Assembly (NCBI GenBank): GCA_031416315.1 | Contig: JANOTL010000090.1 | Location: forward strand, 1-11,133 | Direction of reading: 5' to 3' | DNA from: Pseudomonadota bacterium | Lineage (GTDB): Bacteria; Bdellovibrionota_B; Oligoflexia; Oligoflexales; CAIYRB01 | Length of the DNA stretch: 11,133 nucleotides | In this document: positions 2,584-10,795 of the stretch, piece after piece | Position numbering within the stretch: the first letter of the stretch is position 1 | Layout: each line of letters opens with the position of its first letter | Made by a program: the position numbers and the translations under genes | Notes under the pieces: model-generated | The model's input: only the letters and a program-made list of their open reading frames with translations | What the model was told of the DNA's origin: nothing | Database searches by the model: none

Positions 2584-3044
2584 ACCGCTGACGAGACAGA
2601 CCGGAATCTCTCGAAATCTACGAAAATTCATTCGCGTTGGTCGCATTGGTCGCACGCACATCGTTCGACTCCGCGATCTTCCGCGCCATCGCCTTCCGCG
2701 CCGCGAACATCTCGACGAATAGCGAGACCTTCGCGCTCACGACGAGAGAATCGATCGGCTTGATGATGTCGTCGATCGCTCCCATTTCGTAGCCACGCAG
2801 GATGAACGAAAGCTCGTCGGCAACTGCCGTGATGAAGACGATGGGCACGTGGCCCATGGAGCTGGAGGACCGGATTCTCCTCGCAACTTCGAAGCCCGTC
2901 CATGCCGGGCATCATGACGTCGAGCAAGACCGCTGCGAAGTCACGTCGGGCCAACTCTCTGAGCGCCTGATCCCAGGAACTCTCCAAGACGAGGTTGTAC
3001 CGGGGATCGTAGAGGACGAGGGAAAGACGTGGCCGAGCAATCAT
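2584..3044 (-). pseudogene. Degraded response-regulator receiver / hybrid histidine kinase remnant
   Basis: ...RRDFAAVLLDVMMPGMDG is followed by an extra base in CCC 2895-2897. Removing it gives FEVARRIRSSSSMGHVPIVFITAV...GAIDDIIKP, a receiver with the phospho-Asp, Thr and KP. The N-terminal beta1 (ILIVDD) is missing and the frame stops at 2618. Confidence 0.75.
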
Positions 3045-3213: not shown

Positions 3214-4032
3214 TCAGAAGCGCTGAGCGCTTCCGATGAGCACCATCGTCGCCACGATGGCGGGTACCGTCGGCAGTTGGCTGAAGCGCAGCGAGAGCAT
3301 AAATCCGACCAGGCAGGCTAGGGCGGCGACGATTCCACATCGGACGAGGTGGCGCCGCAACCCTGAACGTCCGGTGCGAACGGCCAAGGCCGTCGGCACG
3401 AAAAGACAAGCGACGGTAAACAAGAAGCCGGCGATTTGGACGCTCAGACAGATCAAAATGAGCGACCCGATCGCAAACAGCCCGTCGGCACCGCGCAAAG
3501 TCGTCTCGGGGCTGCACAGAATCATCGTCTCGAACGAGCGCCGGCTCACGGAATTCGAGCGCCAAGCGATCAAGATCAGGGCTGCGCTCCCAGCGAACAA
3601 TAGTGCCAGCGATTCCATCTTGCTGACCGTCGCGAGATCGCCGAAGTATTTCTGCGCCATGTGGCTATCGAGCGCGGGGAAAAGCGCGCTAACGAGGTAT
3701 CCGCACGCGAGCAGCGCGGCGAACATTGCGGCAAAGTGGGTGTTGCGGGCGGCGCGAAGCACCGCGACTTGGTGCTCGCTCATGGCATACGTCGCGCCTG
3801 AAGCGACGAGGGCAAGCGCAAACGGAGCTACGGATCCGGCGTAGTCGGACAGCGCCAGAGATTGGACGAGTCCGATGCCAAGGAGCACGCCCAGCATGGC
3901 GCCCTGCCCGACGCACATGGTTTGCATGGCTCGATCTCGCGCCGCCAGCTGCGCCCCAAGCAGAGCTAGGGCCGATGCGAGCACCGTGCTGCCGACCATG
4001 GTCATCCCATAGATTGCAAGCAGCGTGCTCAA
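3214..4032 (-). CDS. Metal ABC transporter permease (ABC-3, ZnuB-like), about 272 aa
   Basis: Many hydrophobic helices, YFGDLATVS and SVQIAGFLFTVACLFVP. Probable TTG start at 4032 overlaps the ATPase stop (TTGA). Last gene of the operon. Confidence 0.85.
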   Translation of the reverse strand: MSTLLAIYGMTMVGSTVLASALALLGAQLAARDRAMQTMCVGQGAMLGVLLGIGLVQSLALSDYAGSVAPFALALVASGATYAMSEHQVAVLRAARNTHFAAMFAALLACGYLVSALFPALDSHMAQKYFGDLATVSKMESLALLFAGSAALILIAWRSNSVSRRSFETMILCSPETTLRGADGLFAIGSLILICLSVQIAGFLFTVACLFVPTALAVRTGRSGLRRHLVRCGIVAALACLVGFMLSLRFSQLPTVPAIVATMVLIGSAQRF

Positions 4033-4655
4033 TCGGCCGCCGCGGACGGTTTGAGGCCGATCGTGACGACTCCGGGCCAACCGTCGCGTTCAATCGCCTG
4101 CTCGTGGCACACCATTAGGACTCCGCGCTCGTCAGACGCGACGTGGCGGCGGAGCGCGTCGCGTAAGAGCTTACGGCCGTCGGCGTCGAGATGGTTCATT
4201 GGCTCATCCAGGACGACGAAGGTCGGCTCGTCGAGAAGGATCTTTGTCAGCAAAGTTTTCTGGCGCTCACCGCCGCTGGCAGTATTCCACGCAAGGTCAA
4301 GGTGACGCGGGTCGAGGAGGCCGACGTCACGGACACGCGAATCGGTGATGGGCACCCCCGCCGAGAACGACAGAACGTCGCGCAAGGTCAGTGGCAAATG
4401 AAACTCGCGATTCTGCAGTTGCGTCAAGAAGCGAAGGTGCTTCAACTCGAAGGCGCGCTCGATCGATCCGGCAGTCGGCGCTGTCTCCCCCTGCACGACC
4501 TGCAGGAGCGTCGATTTCCCAACGCCGTTGGGACCGACGACAGCGACGATCGCGCCGGAATCGACCGTGAAAGAAAGGCCGCTCACGAGCGCGCGCCCGT
4601 CTGGCGTTCCGTACGCCAGATTCTTGACCTCCAGCAAAGCACGCCTTGCGGTCAT
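4029..4655 (-). CDS. Metal ABC transporter ATP-binding subunit (ZnuC-like, 208 aa)
   Basis: Walker A GPNGVGKST, signature ASGGERQK, Walker B VVLDEP and H-loop MVCH. ATGA overlap with the SBP stop. Confidence 0.92.
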   Translation of the reverse strand: MTARRALLEVKNLAYGTPDGRALVSGLSFTVDSGAIVAVVGPNGVGKSTLLQVVQGETAPTAGSIERAFELKHLRFLTQLQNREFHLPLTLRDVLSFSAGVPITDSRVRDVGLLDPRHLDLAWNTASGGERQKTLLTKILLDEPTFVVLDEPMNHLDADGRKLLRDALRRHVASDERGVLMVCHEQAIERDGWPGVVTIGLKPSAAAD

Positions 4656-5614
4656 TGCAGCGCTTGGCCGCCGCCGAGCGCCCGTACGATCTCGGCGGCG
4701 ATGTGAGCTTGAAGCTCCGGGTACGTCTTGAGCTTGCCGGAAGCCTGGATCATCGTCGGAACGACGATTACGGGGAGGCCGGAGATTTCGCGAAACTTCG
4801 CGACGGTTTTGACCGGGTTGTCTTCGGCCGCCAACGCCACCCGGACCCCGCCGCTCTTGGCGGCCAAACTGACTTCGACGAGTCGTCCGGCCGAAGGCGG
4901 CACACCCGGCTTCTCTTCGATGCTGCCGGCCGACCGAATGCCATACTGCGCGAAAAAGTAGGCGAACTCCTTATGATACTCGACCACGACCGGACGGTCG
5001 CCGGCGGCCCCTTGCGCCGCCAGAACTGGCGCGAGCGTGATCGCAACCTCGGTGCTCAACTTGTCGAGCCGTCTCGCGAATGTTTCAAGTCCTAGCCGGT
5101 AATGGGACGCATGATTCGCATCGACCCGCTCGAGTGCGGCCGCGATTTCGCGACCGGCGGCAGCCAATGCCTTGGGACTAAGCCAGAAATGAGGGTTGCC
5201 GGCGGGATGAACGTCGCCCATCGATCGATCGACCGGACCCGTCGGTTTTTCCAAGACTTCGACGCCCTTGCCGACCTCGCAGTAGCCCTTTCCGCCGGGC
5301 TGTACGTCCGCGTTCCCCGAACGCGCCAAAACCGGCGGCATGTAACCGACCTCGAGATCGAGCCCGACGAGGCAGACGACCTGTGCCTCGGCGACAAGGC
5401 GCGTGAATTCCGGGACGGCGTCGACGAAGTGCGGATTCTCCGTGCCGGCGAGGAGCGCTCTTGCCTCGACCCGCGAGCCGCCGATCTCGGCGGCCGCCCA
5501 TGCGAGCTCCGGGATGGTCGTGACGACTTGGACTTTGCCGTCCGCGAAGGCAGTAGCCGCAGAGCCAGCCAGGGTCGCGAACGCAATGAGATACATTGAG
5601 AATTTAGAAGTCAT
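4652..5614 (-). CDS. Metal ABC transporter substrate-binding protein (ZnuA/TroA cluster A-I, 320 aa)
   Basis: Signal peptide, VQVVTTIPEL, ENPHFVD, GDVHPAGNPHFWLSP, YHKEFAYF and IEEKPGVPPS. Three canonical His ligand positions are recognisable. Confidence 0.92.
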   Translation of the reverse strand: MTSKFSMYLIAFATLAGSAATAFADGKVQVVTTIPELAWAAAEIGGSRVEARALLAGTENPHFVDAVPEFTRLVAEAQVVCLVGLDLEVGYMPPVLARSGNADVQPGGKGYCEVGKGVEVLEKPTGPVDRSMGDVHPAGNPHFWLSPKALAAAGREIAAALERVDANHASHYRLGLETFARRLDKLSTEVAITLAPVLAAQGAAGDRPVVVEYHKEFAYFFAQYGIRSAGSIEEKPGVPPSAGRLVEVSLAAKSGGVRVALAAEDNPVKTVAKFREISGLPVIVVPTMIQASGKLKTYPELQAHIAAEIVRALGGGQALQ

Positions 5615-6671
5615 GGGCTGGATGCGCTCCGATCATGAAGGTTGCTTGCACTTCGGCGATCTGATTTTTCATGTCCGCCTGGGCCGTTTGCTTTGCGACC
5701 GACGAGTCGTAAGCTAGCCGCAGCGTCGAAAACTCGCTTGCTCTGTAGGTCAGGGTCGGCACGACATGTTGCTCCGAGTTCGAAACCTTGGCGCCCGCGA
5801 GGTCTTTAAGCGTCAGAACCGTGTAGTAGTCGAGAAGAATTCCAAACTGAAACTGGCTCGTGAGCGCGGACTGCGGAAAGAAATAGGCACCCAGGCTCCG
5901 TTCGACGGCACCATTGCGCGGAGTCTTCGTCCGTTGCCACACCTCCCCTTGCAGGAGCAGATCGAGAACACCGCCGTGCCTCCACTTTGCAGCCAGGTCC
6001 AGTCCCCCGAGAGTCATTCTGTCTCCAGATGCCGCGATGCGGCTCATGTAATTCATCCCGAGCTGCGCGCCGCCACTGCCGGGCAGTGATGCATAGGTGA
6101 CTGCACGACCATAGTGCGTCGGCTTGCGCGGCTTTTCCCCCTCGTCATGTGCGTGGCCGTAAGTCCAGCCGTTGGTGACTCCGGCGCTCACTTCCAGAAA
6201 GAACGGCAGCGGCGTCAGGAATGAGTATTCGAGCCCCGAGTCGAGGGCGCCTTCCGCCCCGAAGAATTCTTGCTGCACCTTTGGCGCGAAAATGAACGGC
6301 CATTCGTGGCGATGGAAGCGATTGAGACGGCCGACGCCGAGAAAAAACTGGCCGAGACGAATCTGCGAGCGGGGGATCAGCTTCGACGAGCCAAGATAAG
6401 CCTCGTGGACCTCGAATACCGAAACTCCGGCCTCTCGATGAGCCGCGGCACTCAGCACTCCATCAAACGTTTGGTCAACCGGAGCCACGAGGATGAGCTC
6501 GGCCTCCCGAATGTCGAACCGGTCCGTCGCTCGATCGTCCTTCCCGAGGCGAAAGGCGCCCGCCGAGTCCACGGCGGCCGAGATCTTGAGGCCAGACCCG
6601 TCGTCGGAAAGCGCCGAGGACGACAGGAAGATTGCCGAAAAGACGCCCGCAGCCCGCGCCCTAGTCATCAT
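5604..6671 (-). CDS. Outer-membrane beta-barrel protein associated with metal ABC operons (355 aa)
   Basis: Signal peptide, amphipathic strands, IREAEL, GRLNRFHRHEWPF, loop GHAHDEG and C-terminal IGAHPAHDF ending in Phe. 11-nt overlap with the SBP gene. Confidence 0.8.
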   Translation of the reverse strand: MMTRARAAGVFSAIFLSSSALSDDGSGLKISAAVDSAGAFRLGKDDRATDRFDIREAELILVAPVDQTFDGVLSAAAHREAGVSVFEVHEAYLGSSKLIPRSQIRLGQFFLGVGRLNRFHRHEWPFIFAPKVQQEFFGAEGALDSGLEYSFLTPLPFFLEVSAGVTNGWTYGHAHDEGEKPRKPTHYGRAVTYASLPGSGGAQLGMNYMSRIAASGDRMTLGGLDLAAKWRHGGVLDLLLQGEVWQRTKTPRNGAVERSLGAYFFPQSALTSQFQFGILLDYYTVLTLKDLAGAKVSNSEQHVVPTLTYRASEFSTLRLAYDSSVAKQTAQADMKNQIAEVQATFMIGAHPAHDF

Positions 6672-7309
6672 TGTTCGACAAACTTCGGATCACCGAGCAC
6701 GGCCGTCGTCACTTGTGCCTTCGCGAGGCGGAGCCCCCAAAACGTTCCGGTCCCTTGGCCAGGGGTCGGGCCGTCTTCCTCGGAGTTAAACACGGCCTTT
6801 TCTTCGCCGAATTCGGCGTCGGCCCACACGAGGACATGCGCCGGACTCTCGTCGTTATGAACGTCGACGACGATGCGAAGGGCGCTGGCTGCATCGACGC
6901 CGTCGAGGGGTTTGGCTTCCCCGATTTGCCCGGCCGCTCCGAGTGCGACGGAAAGTCCCGCGCCAACCCGCGTAAAGACGAGGACGACACCGTTTTCCAG
7001 CTTTTGATCGGCTTGCGTGATCAGCGTGACCGAACCGCCATCGTCGAGCGTGAAGGCGAGGTCATAGCTCTTTTTTGAGCCGAGCTCCCCGAGCGGCTGC
7101 TTGAATGCGACGGCGCCGCTTCCTTTCAAGTGGGTGTCGGCCCTTTGCAAATCTCCGGCGTCTGCGACGACATAGGCGTTGGTTCCGAGGCGCCCGTCGG
7201 CCGTGCCCGCGGTCTCGCCGTTGCCGGCGGAGCAAGCGGCGGCGCCGAAAGTCAGGAGAAGCGGAAAAACGCACGCGAACGTATGGAATGCTTGCACGGA
7301 AGCCCTCAT
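6668..7309 (-). CDS. Putative lipoprotein of unknown function, first structural gene of the metal uptake operon (213 aa)
   Basis: Signal peptide ending LLLTFGAAA-C, beta-rich body, motif DVHNDESPAH, ATGA overlap with the barrel gene. An alternative start is GTG at 7297, preceded by GAGGG. Confidence 0.8.
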   Translation of the reverse strand: MRASVQAFHTFACVFPLLLTFGAAACSAGNGETAGTADGRLGTNAYVVADAGDLQRADTHLKGSGAVAFKQPLGELGSKKSYDLAFTLDDGGSVTLITQADQKLENGVVLVFTRVGAGLSVALGAAGQIGEAKPLDGVDAASALRIVVDVHNDESPAHVLVWADAEFGEEKAVFNSEEDGPTPGQGTGTFWGLRLAKAQVTTAVLGDPKFVEQ

Positions 7310-7351
7310 TCTAGATGGATTGAATTTTTGATTGGGTCGGGAAAGGTGAAA

Positions 7352-7741
7352 CTAGGCGGCGCTCGGCGGGGCGCGAGCGGATTGCGGCATGCGCCGCGGA
7401 AGTATCGTGGGGGAGCGAGGTGATGCGAAGGTCAGCACGAATGCTAGACGCGGCTCGCGCACTTTCAGCGATCCAACCGGCAGGCTCAGACTGAGGATGC
7501 CGACGCCCGCAATGTGCAAGGCCAGAGTGCCGGCGCGCCCGGCGGAATCGTGAGGCTCTTCGTTGTAGTCTACGAAACCATCAAGCAAACAACGGAAGGC
7601 GTGCTCGTGGTCCGTGTCCTGAGCATGGGCCGAAGCGTGAGCGTCGAGATTGCGGCCGAAAACCAGCAACAGGTAGAGACACAGCCATAAGCTCGTCGCC
7701 CAGCGACTGGTGGATCTCTGATTTATCTGATTGGAAGGCAT
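7352..7741 (-). CDS. Leader ORF, DUF2946/CruR-like architecture, His-rich with C-terminal RAPP (about 129 aa)
   Basis: Hydrophobic segment LWLCLYLLLVFG, then HASAHAQDTDHEHAFRC, a Pro/Arg-rich tail and SARAPPSAA*. ATG 7741 is chosen over TTG 7777, but the start is uncertain. Confidence 0.7.
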   Translation of the reverse strand: MPSNQINQRSTSRWATSLWLCLYLLLVFGRNLDAHASAHAQDTDHEHAFRCLLDGFVDYNEEPHDSAGRAGTLALHIAGVGILSLSLPVGSLKVREPRLAFVLTFASPRSPTILPRRMPQSARAPPSAA

Positions 7742-7815
7742 GACGGTGCAAATCGTTGAGATCAGTTTTTCACGCAATTGCCACTGAACCGCGTTCGGAA
7801 CGAGAATTACGGCAA

Positions 7816-7832
7816 ACGCAATATAGTTGCAA
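7816..7832. promoter_or_regulatory. Zur/Fur-family operator-like palindrome
   Basis: ACGCAATATAGTTGCAA, core GCAA-N5-TTGC, matches 11 of 14 defined positions of the ATGCAAC-N3-GTTGCAT type Zur box as recalled. It lies in an AT-rich patch about 75 bp upstream of the leader ORF of a ZnuABC-like operon. Confidence 0.65.
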
Positions 7833-7979: not shown

Positions 7980-9301
7980 TTAACGCCGAATGGCTCGTAG
8001 CCTGATCGGCGCGGCGGGCGCGAGTGTGGCGCCGGGAAGCGGCTTGACCTCGGTGTCCACGTCGAGCCGAAGCTCGTAGCCACGCACGATCGTCGACACG
8101 ACGAGCTTGGCTTCCATCATCGCAAGGGATTGCCCGATGCAGCCTCGGGGGCCGCCGCCAAACGCGAAGAAGGCGCCGGAATCCGCCGAGGCGGCGTCAC
8201 GATCGAACCGATGCGGATCGAATCGCAAGGGATCGGGAAAGTACCGGGCCTGACGATGCAAGAGATACGGCGAGATGTAGATGACGTCACGGCGCCCGAC
8301 CCGAAAGCCGCCGAGGCGCGGCGACGGGGCTGCGGTCGAAGACCCAAACGGGGGGGATAGAGGCGCATAGCCTCGCGAACGACGTTCGACGTGGCGCGGA
8401 GACCTTCGCCGTCGGCCCGCACCAGGTCTTGGGCGCCGGGATTGCGCGCCAAAAGATAGAGCGTCCACGACATGAGCTTTGCCACCGTCTCGTGGCCCGC
8501 GAACAGGAGCGTGACGATGTGGTCGCGTGCCTGCTGAAAGCTCAGCTCTTGCTTCGCGATCCCTGAAGCGAGCGATGAGAGAATGCCGCGGCCTTCTGGG
8601 CTGCGGGCCGAAGTTTCCAGCAGACGCGCCACGAGGCGGTCCACTTGGCGGATCGCAGCTGCTTCACGGCGGTTCCCCGCCGTCGGCATCCAAGCCGGCA
8701 GCGGCATCGAGCGAAAGCGACCGCCGATGGCGTCGGCGAAGTCGCGGAACGCACGGCCGTCTTCGCCTTCGAGCGCCGCCGTCTCCGACTCGGAGCCGAC
8801 GAGAAAACTCAGGATGATCCGCATCGACAGCGCGGTCATCGCGGGCTCGACGTCGACGAGGGTCGATGCCTCCCAGGTGGCCGTCATCCGCGAAGTTTCC
8901 GCATGGATCGGCGCGGCCATCGCCCCGAGGGCACGGGCACCGAAGCTCGGCTGCAGCGTCCGGCGCTGCGTCGCGTGATCCTTGCCCTCGCTTAGAACCA
9001 GGCCGTTGCCGAGAAATTTCCCGACCATGAAGCGGGTCTGACTCGACTTCGAGAAATCTTCCGGTCGCTCGAGCAGGACCTCTCTGGCCAACGCCGCCGA
9101 GTTCAGCACGACGATGCGGTTGAACGGCGACGGACGAATGCAGAAAATGTCGCCGTAATGGTCGGCTGCGTGCGTCAGAAAGCCGAGAAAATCGCGGCGG
9201 ACCAGGCCGAGCTGAGTCCACCAGCCGCCGTCGGGCCCCGGCAGGCGCGGCTCAGAGCGCGCGGCGCGCCTGGGCGTCAACGATGCGGCTTGTGTCGCCA
9301 A
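7980..9301 (-). pseudogene. Cytochrome P450 with two frameshifts (pseudogene or sequencing error)
   Basis: I-helix AGHETVA, K-helix EAMR, DPLRFDPHRF and heme motif FAFGGGPRGCIG. Breaks at the G7 run 8350-8356 and at about 8316. Reconstructed junction: EAMRLYPP/VWVFDRSPVAA/LGGFRVG. Confidence 0.9.
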
Positions 9302-9304
9302 AGC

Positions 9305-10342
9305 TCAGCAGCCCCCGCCAGCCACGAGGACCACGAAGTGTTCCTTATACGTCGGCGCGCGCAAAAGAGTCGCCGCTTCCGCAGACACATCCGTCCGCAC
9401 GCCTCGACGATAGGTATTGCCGCGCTCGTCCGTCACCGACGGGAACGGCCCCTTGTAGACGGCAACGTGGTCCTTCGGTTCGAGCCGCTGCGCGGTCGAC
9501 GCGACAAGCAGATACTCGCGAAATTCGGCGCCACCGAATCCGAAGACGCTCGCATGGCTGAAACGCTTGAGCTCGATGCCGACGAAGTCCGCTTCCTCGA
9601 AGAGAGAGCGCATCTCGGCTTCGGTCGGGACGCGCCGTACGTGGGCCGCAGGCTCCGGAAGTCGCGGCAGCTCCCCGTCTACTTCACGATCCGCGACCAA
9701 AATGTGCGTGGTCATCTTGCCGCCAGGCTGCAGCGCCCGTCGGCATTCTTCGACGATGCGCCACGCCTCGTCACGCGTCATCGCGGCGTTGAAGGTGCCG
9801 CGCAGATTGATCTCTCGCAGCGACGCGTCGGGTGCCGCGATTTTGGCGGGAAAGGCCGACGGAAGCAGGTGCTCGAAAGTTCCGTCGCGGGCTTCGCACG
9901 TCGCGCCGGTGACGGCGTCGGCCCCTCGCGCGGCGCGGGATTCGGCGAGGTCGGCCTCGACCGTGTACACCTCGACCAGATGGCCGTCGGGATCGTTCAT
10001 GTAGATCTTCGATTGGCGCGAAAAACAGCACTCGACCCCGGCTAGATGCTCGAACGCGAGGCCGCGCTCGGCGATGCGCGACGTCGCGTCGACGAGTGCC
10101 GCGCGCGACGCCAACCGGATGCCGAGATGATCGAGGCCCTGGCGGTCCCCGTCGCGCATCGGCTCCAGCGACAGGACGAGCGCGGGGTCTTCGACCTCGA
10201 ATTTCGCGTAGTCGGCGAAGATCTTGGCCGGAGCGACGCCGAGCAAGCGGCCGTAAAATTCGACGCTCTTGCCGAGGTCCTGCACCTTGAGCGAGAGATG
10301 AAACGCCTTGTCCTGGTCCATCGGCATGAAATTCGACCTCAT
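9305..10342 (-). CDS. ArsI/CadI-family VOC metalloenzyme fused to an ArsM-like methyltransferase C-terminal region (about 345 aa)
   Basis: N-domain: FHLSLKV, YAKFEVEDP, LDHLGI, ECCFSRQSKIYMNDPDGHLVEVY (His/His/Glu triad plus vicinal CC). C-domain: ECRRALQPGGK and YKGPFPSVTDERGNTYRRG. Start is ATG 10342 (2 nt after the PhyH stop) or ATG 10327. Confidence 0.8.
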   Translation of the reverse strand: MRSNFMPMDQDKAFHLSLKVQDLGKSVEFYGRLLGVAPAKIFADYAKFEVEDPALVLSLEPMRDGDRQGLDHLGIRLASRAALVDATSRIAERGLAFEHLAGVECCFSRQSKIYMNDPDGHLVEVYTVEADLAESRAARGADAVTGATCEARDGTFEHLLPSAFPAKIAAPDASLREINLRGTFNAAMTRDEAWRIVEECRRALQPGGKMTTHILVADREVDGELPRLPEPAAHVRRVPTEAEMRSLFEEADFVGIELKRFSHASVFGFGGAEFREYLLVASTAQRLEPKDHVAVYKGPFPSVTDERGNTYRRGVRTDVSAEAATLLRAPTYKEHFVVLVAGGGC

Positions 10343-10344
10343 TC

Positions 10345-10795
10345 TCAGCGGAAGTGGGCTTCCTTGGCGCCATACTCTTGGTAGCGCCGACGAAGCCAAG
10401 CGTGGAAGTAGCGATAATGCGCGGCCCGTTGGTCGCCGCCGTCCGACTCTTTGTTGTAGCTCAGGTAGAGCTGGCGGCGCTGCGCCTCACTGCGGTTGGG
10501 TCCGGAACCATGAATCGCATGGCAGCCGAAGATGACGGCGTCGCCGGGCTCGAGCGCGATTTTCACGCGCTCCGCGGCGTCGAAATCGACCTCGGAAAGG
10601 TCGTGAAAGTCGCCGTCACGCGGCGATAGGTAGCCTCGCGCGTGGCTCCCGCGGACGAGCTCGACGCAGCCGTTGCCTTCCTTCGCCGCGTCCAGGGCGA
10701 TCATGACGGTCAAGAAGGACGTCGGAAAGAAGGGCCAGGCGATGAAGTCCTGGTGCCACGGATACCCGGGCGAGCCGCTCGGCTTGAAGATCAGC
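10345..10795 (-). pseudogene. Phytanoyl-CoA dioxygenase (PhyH) family Fe(II)/2-oxoglutarate enzyme, 5'-truncated
   Basis: The frame extends upstream of the track ORF: LIFKPSGSPGYPWHQDF...IALDAAKEGNGC...GSH...LEPGDAVIF...HGSGPNRS, giving the HxD...H triad. It begins abruptly at an in-frame TAG supplied by the hairpin at 10796, with no start codon or N-terminal part. Confidence 0.85.

Follow-up and report, generated by a model that had tools for sequence, protein, structure and literature searches.

The closest described counterparts of the locus considered here are small leader peptides that arrest the ribosome translating them. In CruR (Bp2923), a protein of Pfam family DUF2946 (PF11162), stalling blocks Rho and copper releases the stall; loss of the CxxC motif abolishes metal control while expression is kept, spacing matters, and the signal is dispensable (as described in PMC9426467). 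CruR arrests in vitro, at two Pro codons, and the RAPP sequence also arrests in the ApcA, ApdA, ApdP, and SecM contexts; RAPP is rarer in real proteomes and commoner at the ends of small exported leaders (as described in PMC12992588). CutF carries a CxxxC motif and senses in the periplasm; its copper-induced stall unfolds a hairpin that covers the ribosome-binding site of the following gene, and CutF and CruR respond to copper in opposite directions (as described in bioRxiv 10.1101/2022.11.11.516240 and 10.1101/2025.02.05.636593). The His-only CutF-like clusters 14 and 17 precede HupE/UreJ, and Ni/Co sensing has been proposed for them (bioRxiv CutF preprints). In the open-access literature searched, copper is the only metal for which sensing through a stalled nascent chain has been demonstrated (CruR and CutF).

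A zinc operon supplies another point of comparison. The Vibrio Zur-repressed operon zrgABCDE includes the gene for ZrgD, a DUF2607 (PF10795) protein (as described in PMC9817125), which is called hypothetical and whose single deletion gave no growth defect (as described in PMC9820375). Of 30 rows (among 71) for DUF2796 in the source table of PMC12992588, many are DUF2607 proteins that combine a His run with a single Cys; the word zinc does not occur in the main text of that paper. The open-access literature yielded no report treating ZrgD as an arrest peptide or describing a zinc-sensing arrest peptide.

The window, meaning the whole stretch of 11,133 nucleotides that was analyzed, contains a porin and ZnuACB operon from an uncultured member of a predatory group of bacteria. 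The features of the locus, with the basis of each assignment in parentheses where one applies, are as follows.

7352-7741, minus strand: leader ORF P0001, candidate RAPP arrest peptide (translation, codon-position GC; no homologue)
7655-7702, minus strand: h-region (leader residues 14-29) of a probable Sec signal, with A-x-A type sites after it (judged by eye)
7550-7639, minus strand: His/Cys cluster H35, H39, H45, H47, C51, and H64, a candidate metal site (residue distances)
7475-7525, minus strand: second uncharged hydrophobic segment, residues 73-89, containing H76 (hydropathy, distances)
7364-7375, minus strand: RAPP, residues 123-126 of 129, three residues ahead of the stop (translation)
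7310-7351, minus strand: spacer of 42 nt, of which 14 are C and 2 are G, with weak structure; a candidate rut (Rho utilization) site (composition, folding)
6668-7309, minus strand: lipoprotein-like gene without known family, lipobox seen by eye; alternative start GTG 7297 with GAGG
5604-6671, minus strand: outer-membrane porin of 16 strands whose conserved His motifs include a C-terminal HPxHxF; no TonB-type fold (predicted structure)
4652-5614, minus strand: ZnuA/AztC-type metal-binding protein (PF01297, E 8e-36)
4029-4655, minus strand: ABC ATPase, AztA/ZnuC-like (best NCBIfam match AztA)
3214-4080, minus strand: ABC-3 permease, ZnuB/AztB-like (domain match)
7816-7832, no strand assigned: imperfect palindrome of the TTGCAA-N5-TTGCAA type, a candidate Zur/Fur-family operator (matrix from relatives)

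The candidate leader is open throughout its 129 aa and has the C-terminus RAPPSAA*. Hydropathy reaches 2.74 across residues 18-28, with basic residues preceding, as in an export signal. An initial annotation of this DNA had described such an export-like segment, a His cluster at 7589-7639 (HASAHAQDTDHEHAFRC), and RAPP at 7364-7375 three codons before the stop, and translation located all of them. It had also placed the leader 42 nt ahead of a five-gene metal import operon, with which the gap and the domain matches agree, and had likened the layout to CruR; the export signal, the RAPP, and the position before the first gene of a metal import operon support the likeness. The Zur-like palindrome, the rut-like spacer, and the second hydrophobic segment are additions to that annotation.

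The five operon genes overlap or abut, the lipoprotein-like gene starting at ATG 7309, 42 nt past the leader. No Pfam or NCBIfam family was found for this gene, which is kept ahead of the porin in most relatives, often with a His-rich tail. The porin model has 16 strands (pLDDT 78) and its best structural matches are the general porins OmpT, Omp32, and OprP, so the protein is not a TonB receptor; the operon is of the zinc-type porin/ABC kind that the annotation had proposed. The best NCBIfam matches of the binding protein and the ATPase are the zinc models AztC and AztA. The binding protein also matches Mn-type families, and ZnuA-family proteins carry Mn and Fe too.

Two neighbors of the operon appear to be frameshifted, so local decay or assembly error is possible. 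The response-regulator receiver gene at 2628-3044 (minus strand), just past znuB, has an apparent mid-gene frame change, and the cytochrome P450 gene at 7980-9301 (minus strand) is split over two frames, with the shift at a seven-C run near 8345-8351, where the likely source run has the same letters; the split P450 gene is possibly a pseudogene or an assembly error. Upstream of it, at 9305-10713 (minus strand), lie a glyoxalase-domain fusion and a PhyH dioxygenase fragment.

The leader itself is coding-like, with GC by codon position of 0.64/0.52/0.70, the same as in the five operon genes. RAPP terminates 34, and RGPP 17, of the genome's 26,752 six-frame ORFs of 60-250 aa, counts no higher than those of the control tails AAPP (36) and AGPP (15), so that the tail by itself is not enriched. 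The leader is the sole one of the 51 RAPP/RGPP-tailed short ORFs with a 12-residue hydropathy above 2.2. No Shine-Dalgarno-like 4-mer precedes it, but such a 4-mer is present before only 337 of 907 start-constrained genes here and absent from the other 570. Two soil runs from a different study contain a related strain, covering 7484-7748 and 7489-7728 at a depth of about 2, with 2-3 differences; those listed, L18F and Y59H, are both non-synonymous, Y59H adding a His in the region of the cluster, and RAPP lies outside the coverage. No RNA datasets were listed as containing the leader DNA. Judged from its sequence and setting, the leader is a real, well-placed candidate arrest leader; as a singleton from an uncultured organism, this copy alone is a poor model.

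Searches for relatives of the leader returned little besides itself. A word-index search returned the leader alone; against 1.84 billion representatives it matched only itself and two unrelated long proteins at E~6e-4, and against 131 genomes of its class only itself, with fragments at E>=0.005. The DUF2946 (PF11162) search that the annotation had suggested gave no match at E<=10 for the leader and none elsewhere in the genome; DUF2946 was matched below cut-off by 4 of 12 related ORFs. No PF10795 (DUF2607) match was found on contig C90 even at E<=10, and Pfam matches of the leader to zf-UBP and His1_capsid were disregarded as below cut-off. Leads from the ESM Atlas were unnamed Myxococcota/Nitrospirota clusters (0.96) and DUF6769 (0.95, 121 of 256 features shared).

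Leaders were also sought by position, ahead of homologous porins. The porin is present in 50 of the 131 class genomes, from which 53 regions were collected together with 73 metagenome loci; collapsing the porins at 90% identity gave 93 groups, and removal of 24 with less than 700 nt upstream left 69 loci. The leader loci L082 and L115, from which no porin was extracted, stand outside this count. A PP-tailed hydrophobic leader is found at 15 of the 69 deduplicated loci: six are CxxC-RxPP leaders, eight have xSPP tails, and one is the window leader. In a quick IQ-TREE porin tree the leader types are patchily spread, and the window porin falls in a clade with 97% support whose other four members lack a leader and all carry a divergent Fur-family gene and box. 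Of 401 genomes sampled in a sister phylum, 123 encode the porin, and 110 of the 131 places listed were examined. Among the distant porins 34 of 40 are preceded by a leader, among the near ones 6 of 70; these 6 are xSPP-like, and the 34 comprise 21 CxxC-RxPP leaders, 8 RxPP leaders without CxxC, and 5 with RKPP/RRPP/KKPP-type tails. These last (L221, L228-L230, and L232) carry a HIH motif and, at a distance of exactly 49 residues from the tail, one Cys. ZnuA lies downstream of the porin at L082-L086, the loci where this was checked. In a published set of nine leaders, one has a single Cys, and one is identical in sequence to a leader from the 40 distant-porin loci, so that the name given there extends to this porin family. 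The annotation had suggested a check of homologous loci for the leader: PP-tailed leaders occur at 56 homologous porin loci, but at none of the four closest operon relatives (0/4).

The leaders with xSPP tails form a second class, marked by HxxC-x-EH past the signal, by a Cys some 50 residues ahead of the tail, and by an ending of the APKxSPP type (L046, L051, L057, L059, L099, L104, L115, L135, L138, L185-L187, L257, L258, and L272); a literature search on their motifs found nothing relevant. In some relatives (L039), the leader position is taken by a small gene for an exported His-rich product that has no PP tail.

The window leader departs from nearly all of these in its cysteines. No CxxC occurs in any of the three same-strand frames, and the only leader Cys are C21, in the signal, and C51. 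Reading CLLD as a worn CxxC was rejected because it lies 74 residues before the first Pro, compared with about 50 expected, and a hidden frameshift restoring CxxC was rejected because the other frames lack the motif and the likely source run reads identically. In 55 of 56 related leaders (not deduplicated) a Cys lies 45-57 residues ahead of the first tail Pro. The His/Cys cluster of the window leader is 61-90 residues from the first Pro of RAPP, with 58-87 intervening residues up to RAPP, and so does not take the place of CxxC as the annotation had proposed; only H76 is at that distance, 49 residues before the first Pro with 46 intervening residues before RAPP, within the segment 73-89 that begins 52 residues ahead of the first RAPP Pro. 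The AlphaFold model of the leader is of low confidence (pLDDT 60, pTM 0.28), helix 11-40 being its sole confident part.

The middle of the leader was compared with these classes by fixing the signal and tail, shuffling the middle 1000 times, and scoring on the leader profiles. The real middle beats 1000 of 1000 shuffles on the xSPP profile, 999 of 1000 on the non-CxxC profile, and 984 of 1000 on the all-RxPP profile, but only 74 of 1000 on the CxxC profile. Smaller profiles had earlier given a weak result, in which 13 and 48 of 500 shuffles scored as high. The profile scores of the leader are 8.6-13.7 bits, below those of nearly all leave-one-out members, and profile searches (alignments A3 and A1) returned mostly members already in those alignments. 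By sequence, the leader resembles a remote His/one-Cys leader that ends in a RAPP tail and whose tunnel-exit Cys has been replaced by His or lost. Like the xSPP-tailed (APKxSPP) and non-CxxC RxPP leaders, it heads a porin operon and has a HxHxxC-like motif past the signal; unlike them, it lacks the second Cys that 14 of 15 and 13 of 13 of them, respectively, retain at 45-57 residues from the tail, and its tail is RAPP in place of that of the xSPP class.

The leader resembles CruR in its export signal, in RAPP three residues from the end, in heading a metal import operon, in a stretch with C>G near the leader 3' end, and in a candidate ligand about 46 residues before RAPP. It differs from CruR in lacking both CxxC and a PF11162 match, in a His/Cys cluster much farther from the stall, in a gap of 42 nt (CruR, 162 nt), in the Zur-like operator in front of the operon, and in its cargo, a 16-strand porin with ZnuACB where CruR has a TonB receptor. 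In keeping with the published CutF-like rules, it has fewer than 150 aa, a signal-like N-terminus, PP in the last 15 residues, a same-strand gene within 1 kb, and a Cys/His site; unlike CutF, it has no hairpin over the next ribosome-binding site, and unlike the His-only CutF-like clusters before HupE/UreJ, it precedes ZnuACB. By its sequence, then, the leader would work like CruR without being a member of DUF2946, and falls within the rule-based CutF-like definition. With ZrgD it shares a signal or membrane anchor, a His cluster with a single Cys, a C-terminal RAPP, and a place at the head of a Zur-type zinc ABC operon; the DUF2607 His/Cys cluster ends about 44 residues before RAPP (by eye), and that of the window leader 71. 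These shared sequence features suggest that Vibrio ZrgD is probably an unrecognized arrest leader. SecM, ApdA, ApdP, and ApcA have in common with the leader the RAPP core, the export signal, and release by pulling force (predicted for the leader), but they precede protein-localization genes and have no metal site. No characterized example of the combination was found in the open-access literature, as the annotation had supposed, but the leader class is already visible in published tables, and the His-only CutF-like clusters and ZrgD are precedents in print, which lowers its novelty.

Transcription of the operon may have its own layer of control. In a genome scan with a matrix derived from 11 perfect sites in relatives, the palindrome at 7816-7832 came second of 38 matches; it shares 11 of 14 positions with the predicted Zur box of Desulfovibrio znuABC (as described in PMC545781). 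The best-scoring copy, G000 C94:77692-77712, is flanked by a divergent pair of genes with no obvious link to metals. With this top match away from recognizable metal genes and no CobW_C gene found in the genome, there is no evident sign of a wide Zur regulon. Of two unlinked Fur-family genes in the genome, that on C105 matches Zur best among the NCBIfam models, at a score far below cut-off, and the Zur cut-off is passed neither by the genome's own Fur-family proteins nor by the relatives' regulator.

In the 69 deduplicated loci, an adjacent Fur-family gene is present at 11 of 24 loci with the box and 6 of 45 without it. Such a gene is found at 0 of 15 leader loci compared with 17 of 54 leaderless loci (Fisher p 0.015, which is overstated since kin are not independent), and in the short flanks of the sister phylum at 0 of 40 and 9 of 70, respectively. 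At none of the operons surveyed was a leader found together with an adjacent Fur-family gene. Leader residues 92-124 (7370-7468, minus strand) resemble the N-terminal first helix of the Fur-family protein that the closest relatives encode divergently, with 15 of 36 positions identical (pairwise E 0.001). Origin of the leader from a lost divergent Fur-family gene was not accepted; 20 of 300 shuffles match equally well in a 31-protein set, and a Fur profile search gave no match at these residues.

At the RNA level, G<=2 together with C>=14, as in the spacer, occurs in 0 of 6,429 post-stop regions of the genome, and the C/G skew of the last 117 nt, to which Pro codons contribute a part, is matched by 4 of the 6,429. 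A C-rich spacer is found at only a few of the 16 other leader loci and is not a shared feature. The genome has a rho gene. The spacer region folds no better than shuffles (z 0.12); a weak hairpin of -7.2 kcal/mol takes in GAGG, its partner being sequence within the lipoprotein gene. No pairing was found between the last codons of the leader and the GAGG region, as a CutF-type stem-loop over the next ribosome-binding site would have. The locus has no intrinsic terminator and no riboswitch or RNA family, and the sole sigma-70-like match is on the opposite strand.

On balance, the comparisons favor a CruR-like arrest leader, the stall of which would protect the operon from Rho until metal, most likely zinc, releases it. 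Transcription of the operon would be set by a Fur-family repressor acting at 7816-7832, the palindrome. The lead ribosome would translate the leader, the signal would direct the chain into the Sec channel, and the ribosome would stall at RAPP, as expected because RAPP arrests in several unrelated contexts. Positioned on and just ahead of the C-rich tail and spacer, the stalled ribosome would keep Rho from loading, so that, by analogy to CruR, the genes for the lipoprotein, the porin, and ZnuACB would be transcribed when metal is scarce. A hydrophobic segment pulls on the chain from the point at which its start is about 45 residues from the catalytic center to the point at which its end is (as described in PMC7886326); at the stall, residues 73-89 with H76 would lie 36-52 residues from the center, in pulling range. 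The His/Cys cluster, by its computed distances and presumed topology, would be far enough out to reach the periplasm. Metal, most likely zinc, would bind and fold or anchor the chain, and the added pull would release the ribosome, after which Rho would terminate transcription before the uptake genes. Zinc is favored because of the ZnuA/AztC cargo, the Zur-like box, and the C105 Fur-family protein, whose best (sub-threshold) match is Zur. The components of this model are not equally firm: stalling by the leader is very likely and control of the operon by the stall is likely, modulation of that control by metal is rather probable, and the chances that zinc is the main metal and that Rho is the effector are each about even. 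The leader is thus probably a metal-sensing switch of a kind proven so far only for copper.

The leader might instead be metal-blind or decaying, stalling for the sake of passing the rut-like spacer or monitoring Sec export, its Cys sensor lost and the operator alone giving metal control. CruR CxxC mutants, which retain expression and lose metal control (PMC9426467), offer a model for this, and the canonical Cys kept by 55 of 56 relatives is absent from a singleton sequence in which two of the two listed strain differences are non-synonymous and the operator is still there. Against such loss, six His and one Cys are left in the mature part, H76 is at the canonical distance, the middle resembles the His/one-Cys leaders above shuffles, one strain difference adds a His, and published CutF-like clusters use His alone (bioRxiv CutF preprints); we consider this explanation unlikely, while giving it real weight. 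The same switch could also serve another metal (Ni, Co, Mn, or Cu) or have the opposite sign, with a metal-induced stall as in CutF. Ni/Co sensing has after all been proposed for the His-only CutF-like clusters before HupE/UreJ (bioRxiv CutF preprints), the binding protein matches Mn-type families, and CutF and CruR are opposite in direction, but the best NCBIfam models are the zinc ones AztC/AztA, the operator is like the predicted Desulfovibrio Zur box, and an importer would be expected to be shut by its own metal, all of which makes a different metal or sign improbable.

Translational coupling of the CutF/SecM type, in which the stalled ribosome would melt a hairpin over the lipoprotein ribosome-binding site, appears quite improbable: the 42-nt gap is within the short range seen for CutF-like genes (bioRxiv CutF preprints) and the -7.2 kcal/mol hairpin includes the GAGG region, but the fold is at z 0.12 relative to shuffles and the weak hairpin pairs inside the lipoprotein gene, beyond a ribosome stalled at RAPP. 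It is very improbable that the ORF is no regulator at all, being an ordinary small exported His-rich metal-binding protein or untranslated, with RAPP there by chance. RAPP tails number 34 to the 36 of AAPP, a Shine-Dalgarno sequence is absent, and the L039-type His-rich gene has no PP tail; RAPP is, however, depleted in proteomes and enriched at the ends of small exported leaders (PMC12992588), the joint layout is found at 56 homologous loci, and GC3 is coding-like.

Returning to the CruR-like arrest leader, a Cys-poor leader on a Zur-boxed ZnuACB operon bears on whether metal sensing by a stalled nascent chain extends to zinc and on which ligands choose the metal. We tentatively suggest the possibility of a zinc arrest peptide that would read periplasmic zinc through a distal His site, be coupled through a His-bearing segment in the translocon, and have been gained as the adjacent Fur gene was lost; together with the xSPP leaders, the non-CxxC leaders, and ZrgD, it may represent a widespread, unrecognized second layer of zinc control, built of leader modules that can be swapped before one and the same uptake operon.
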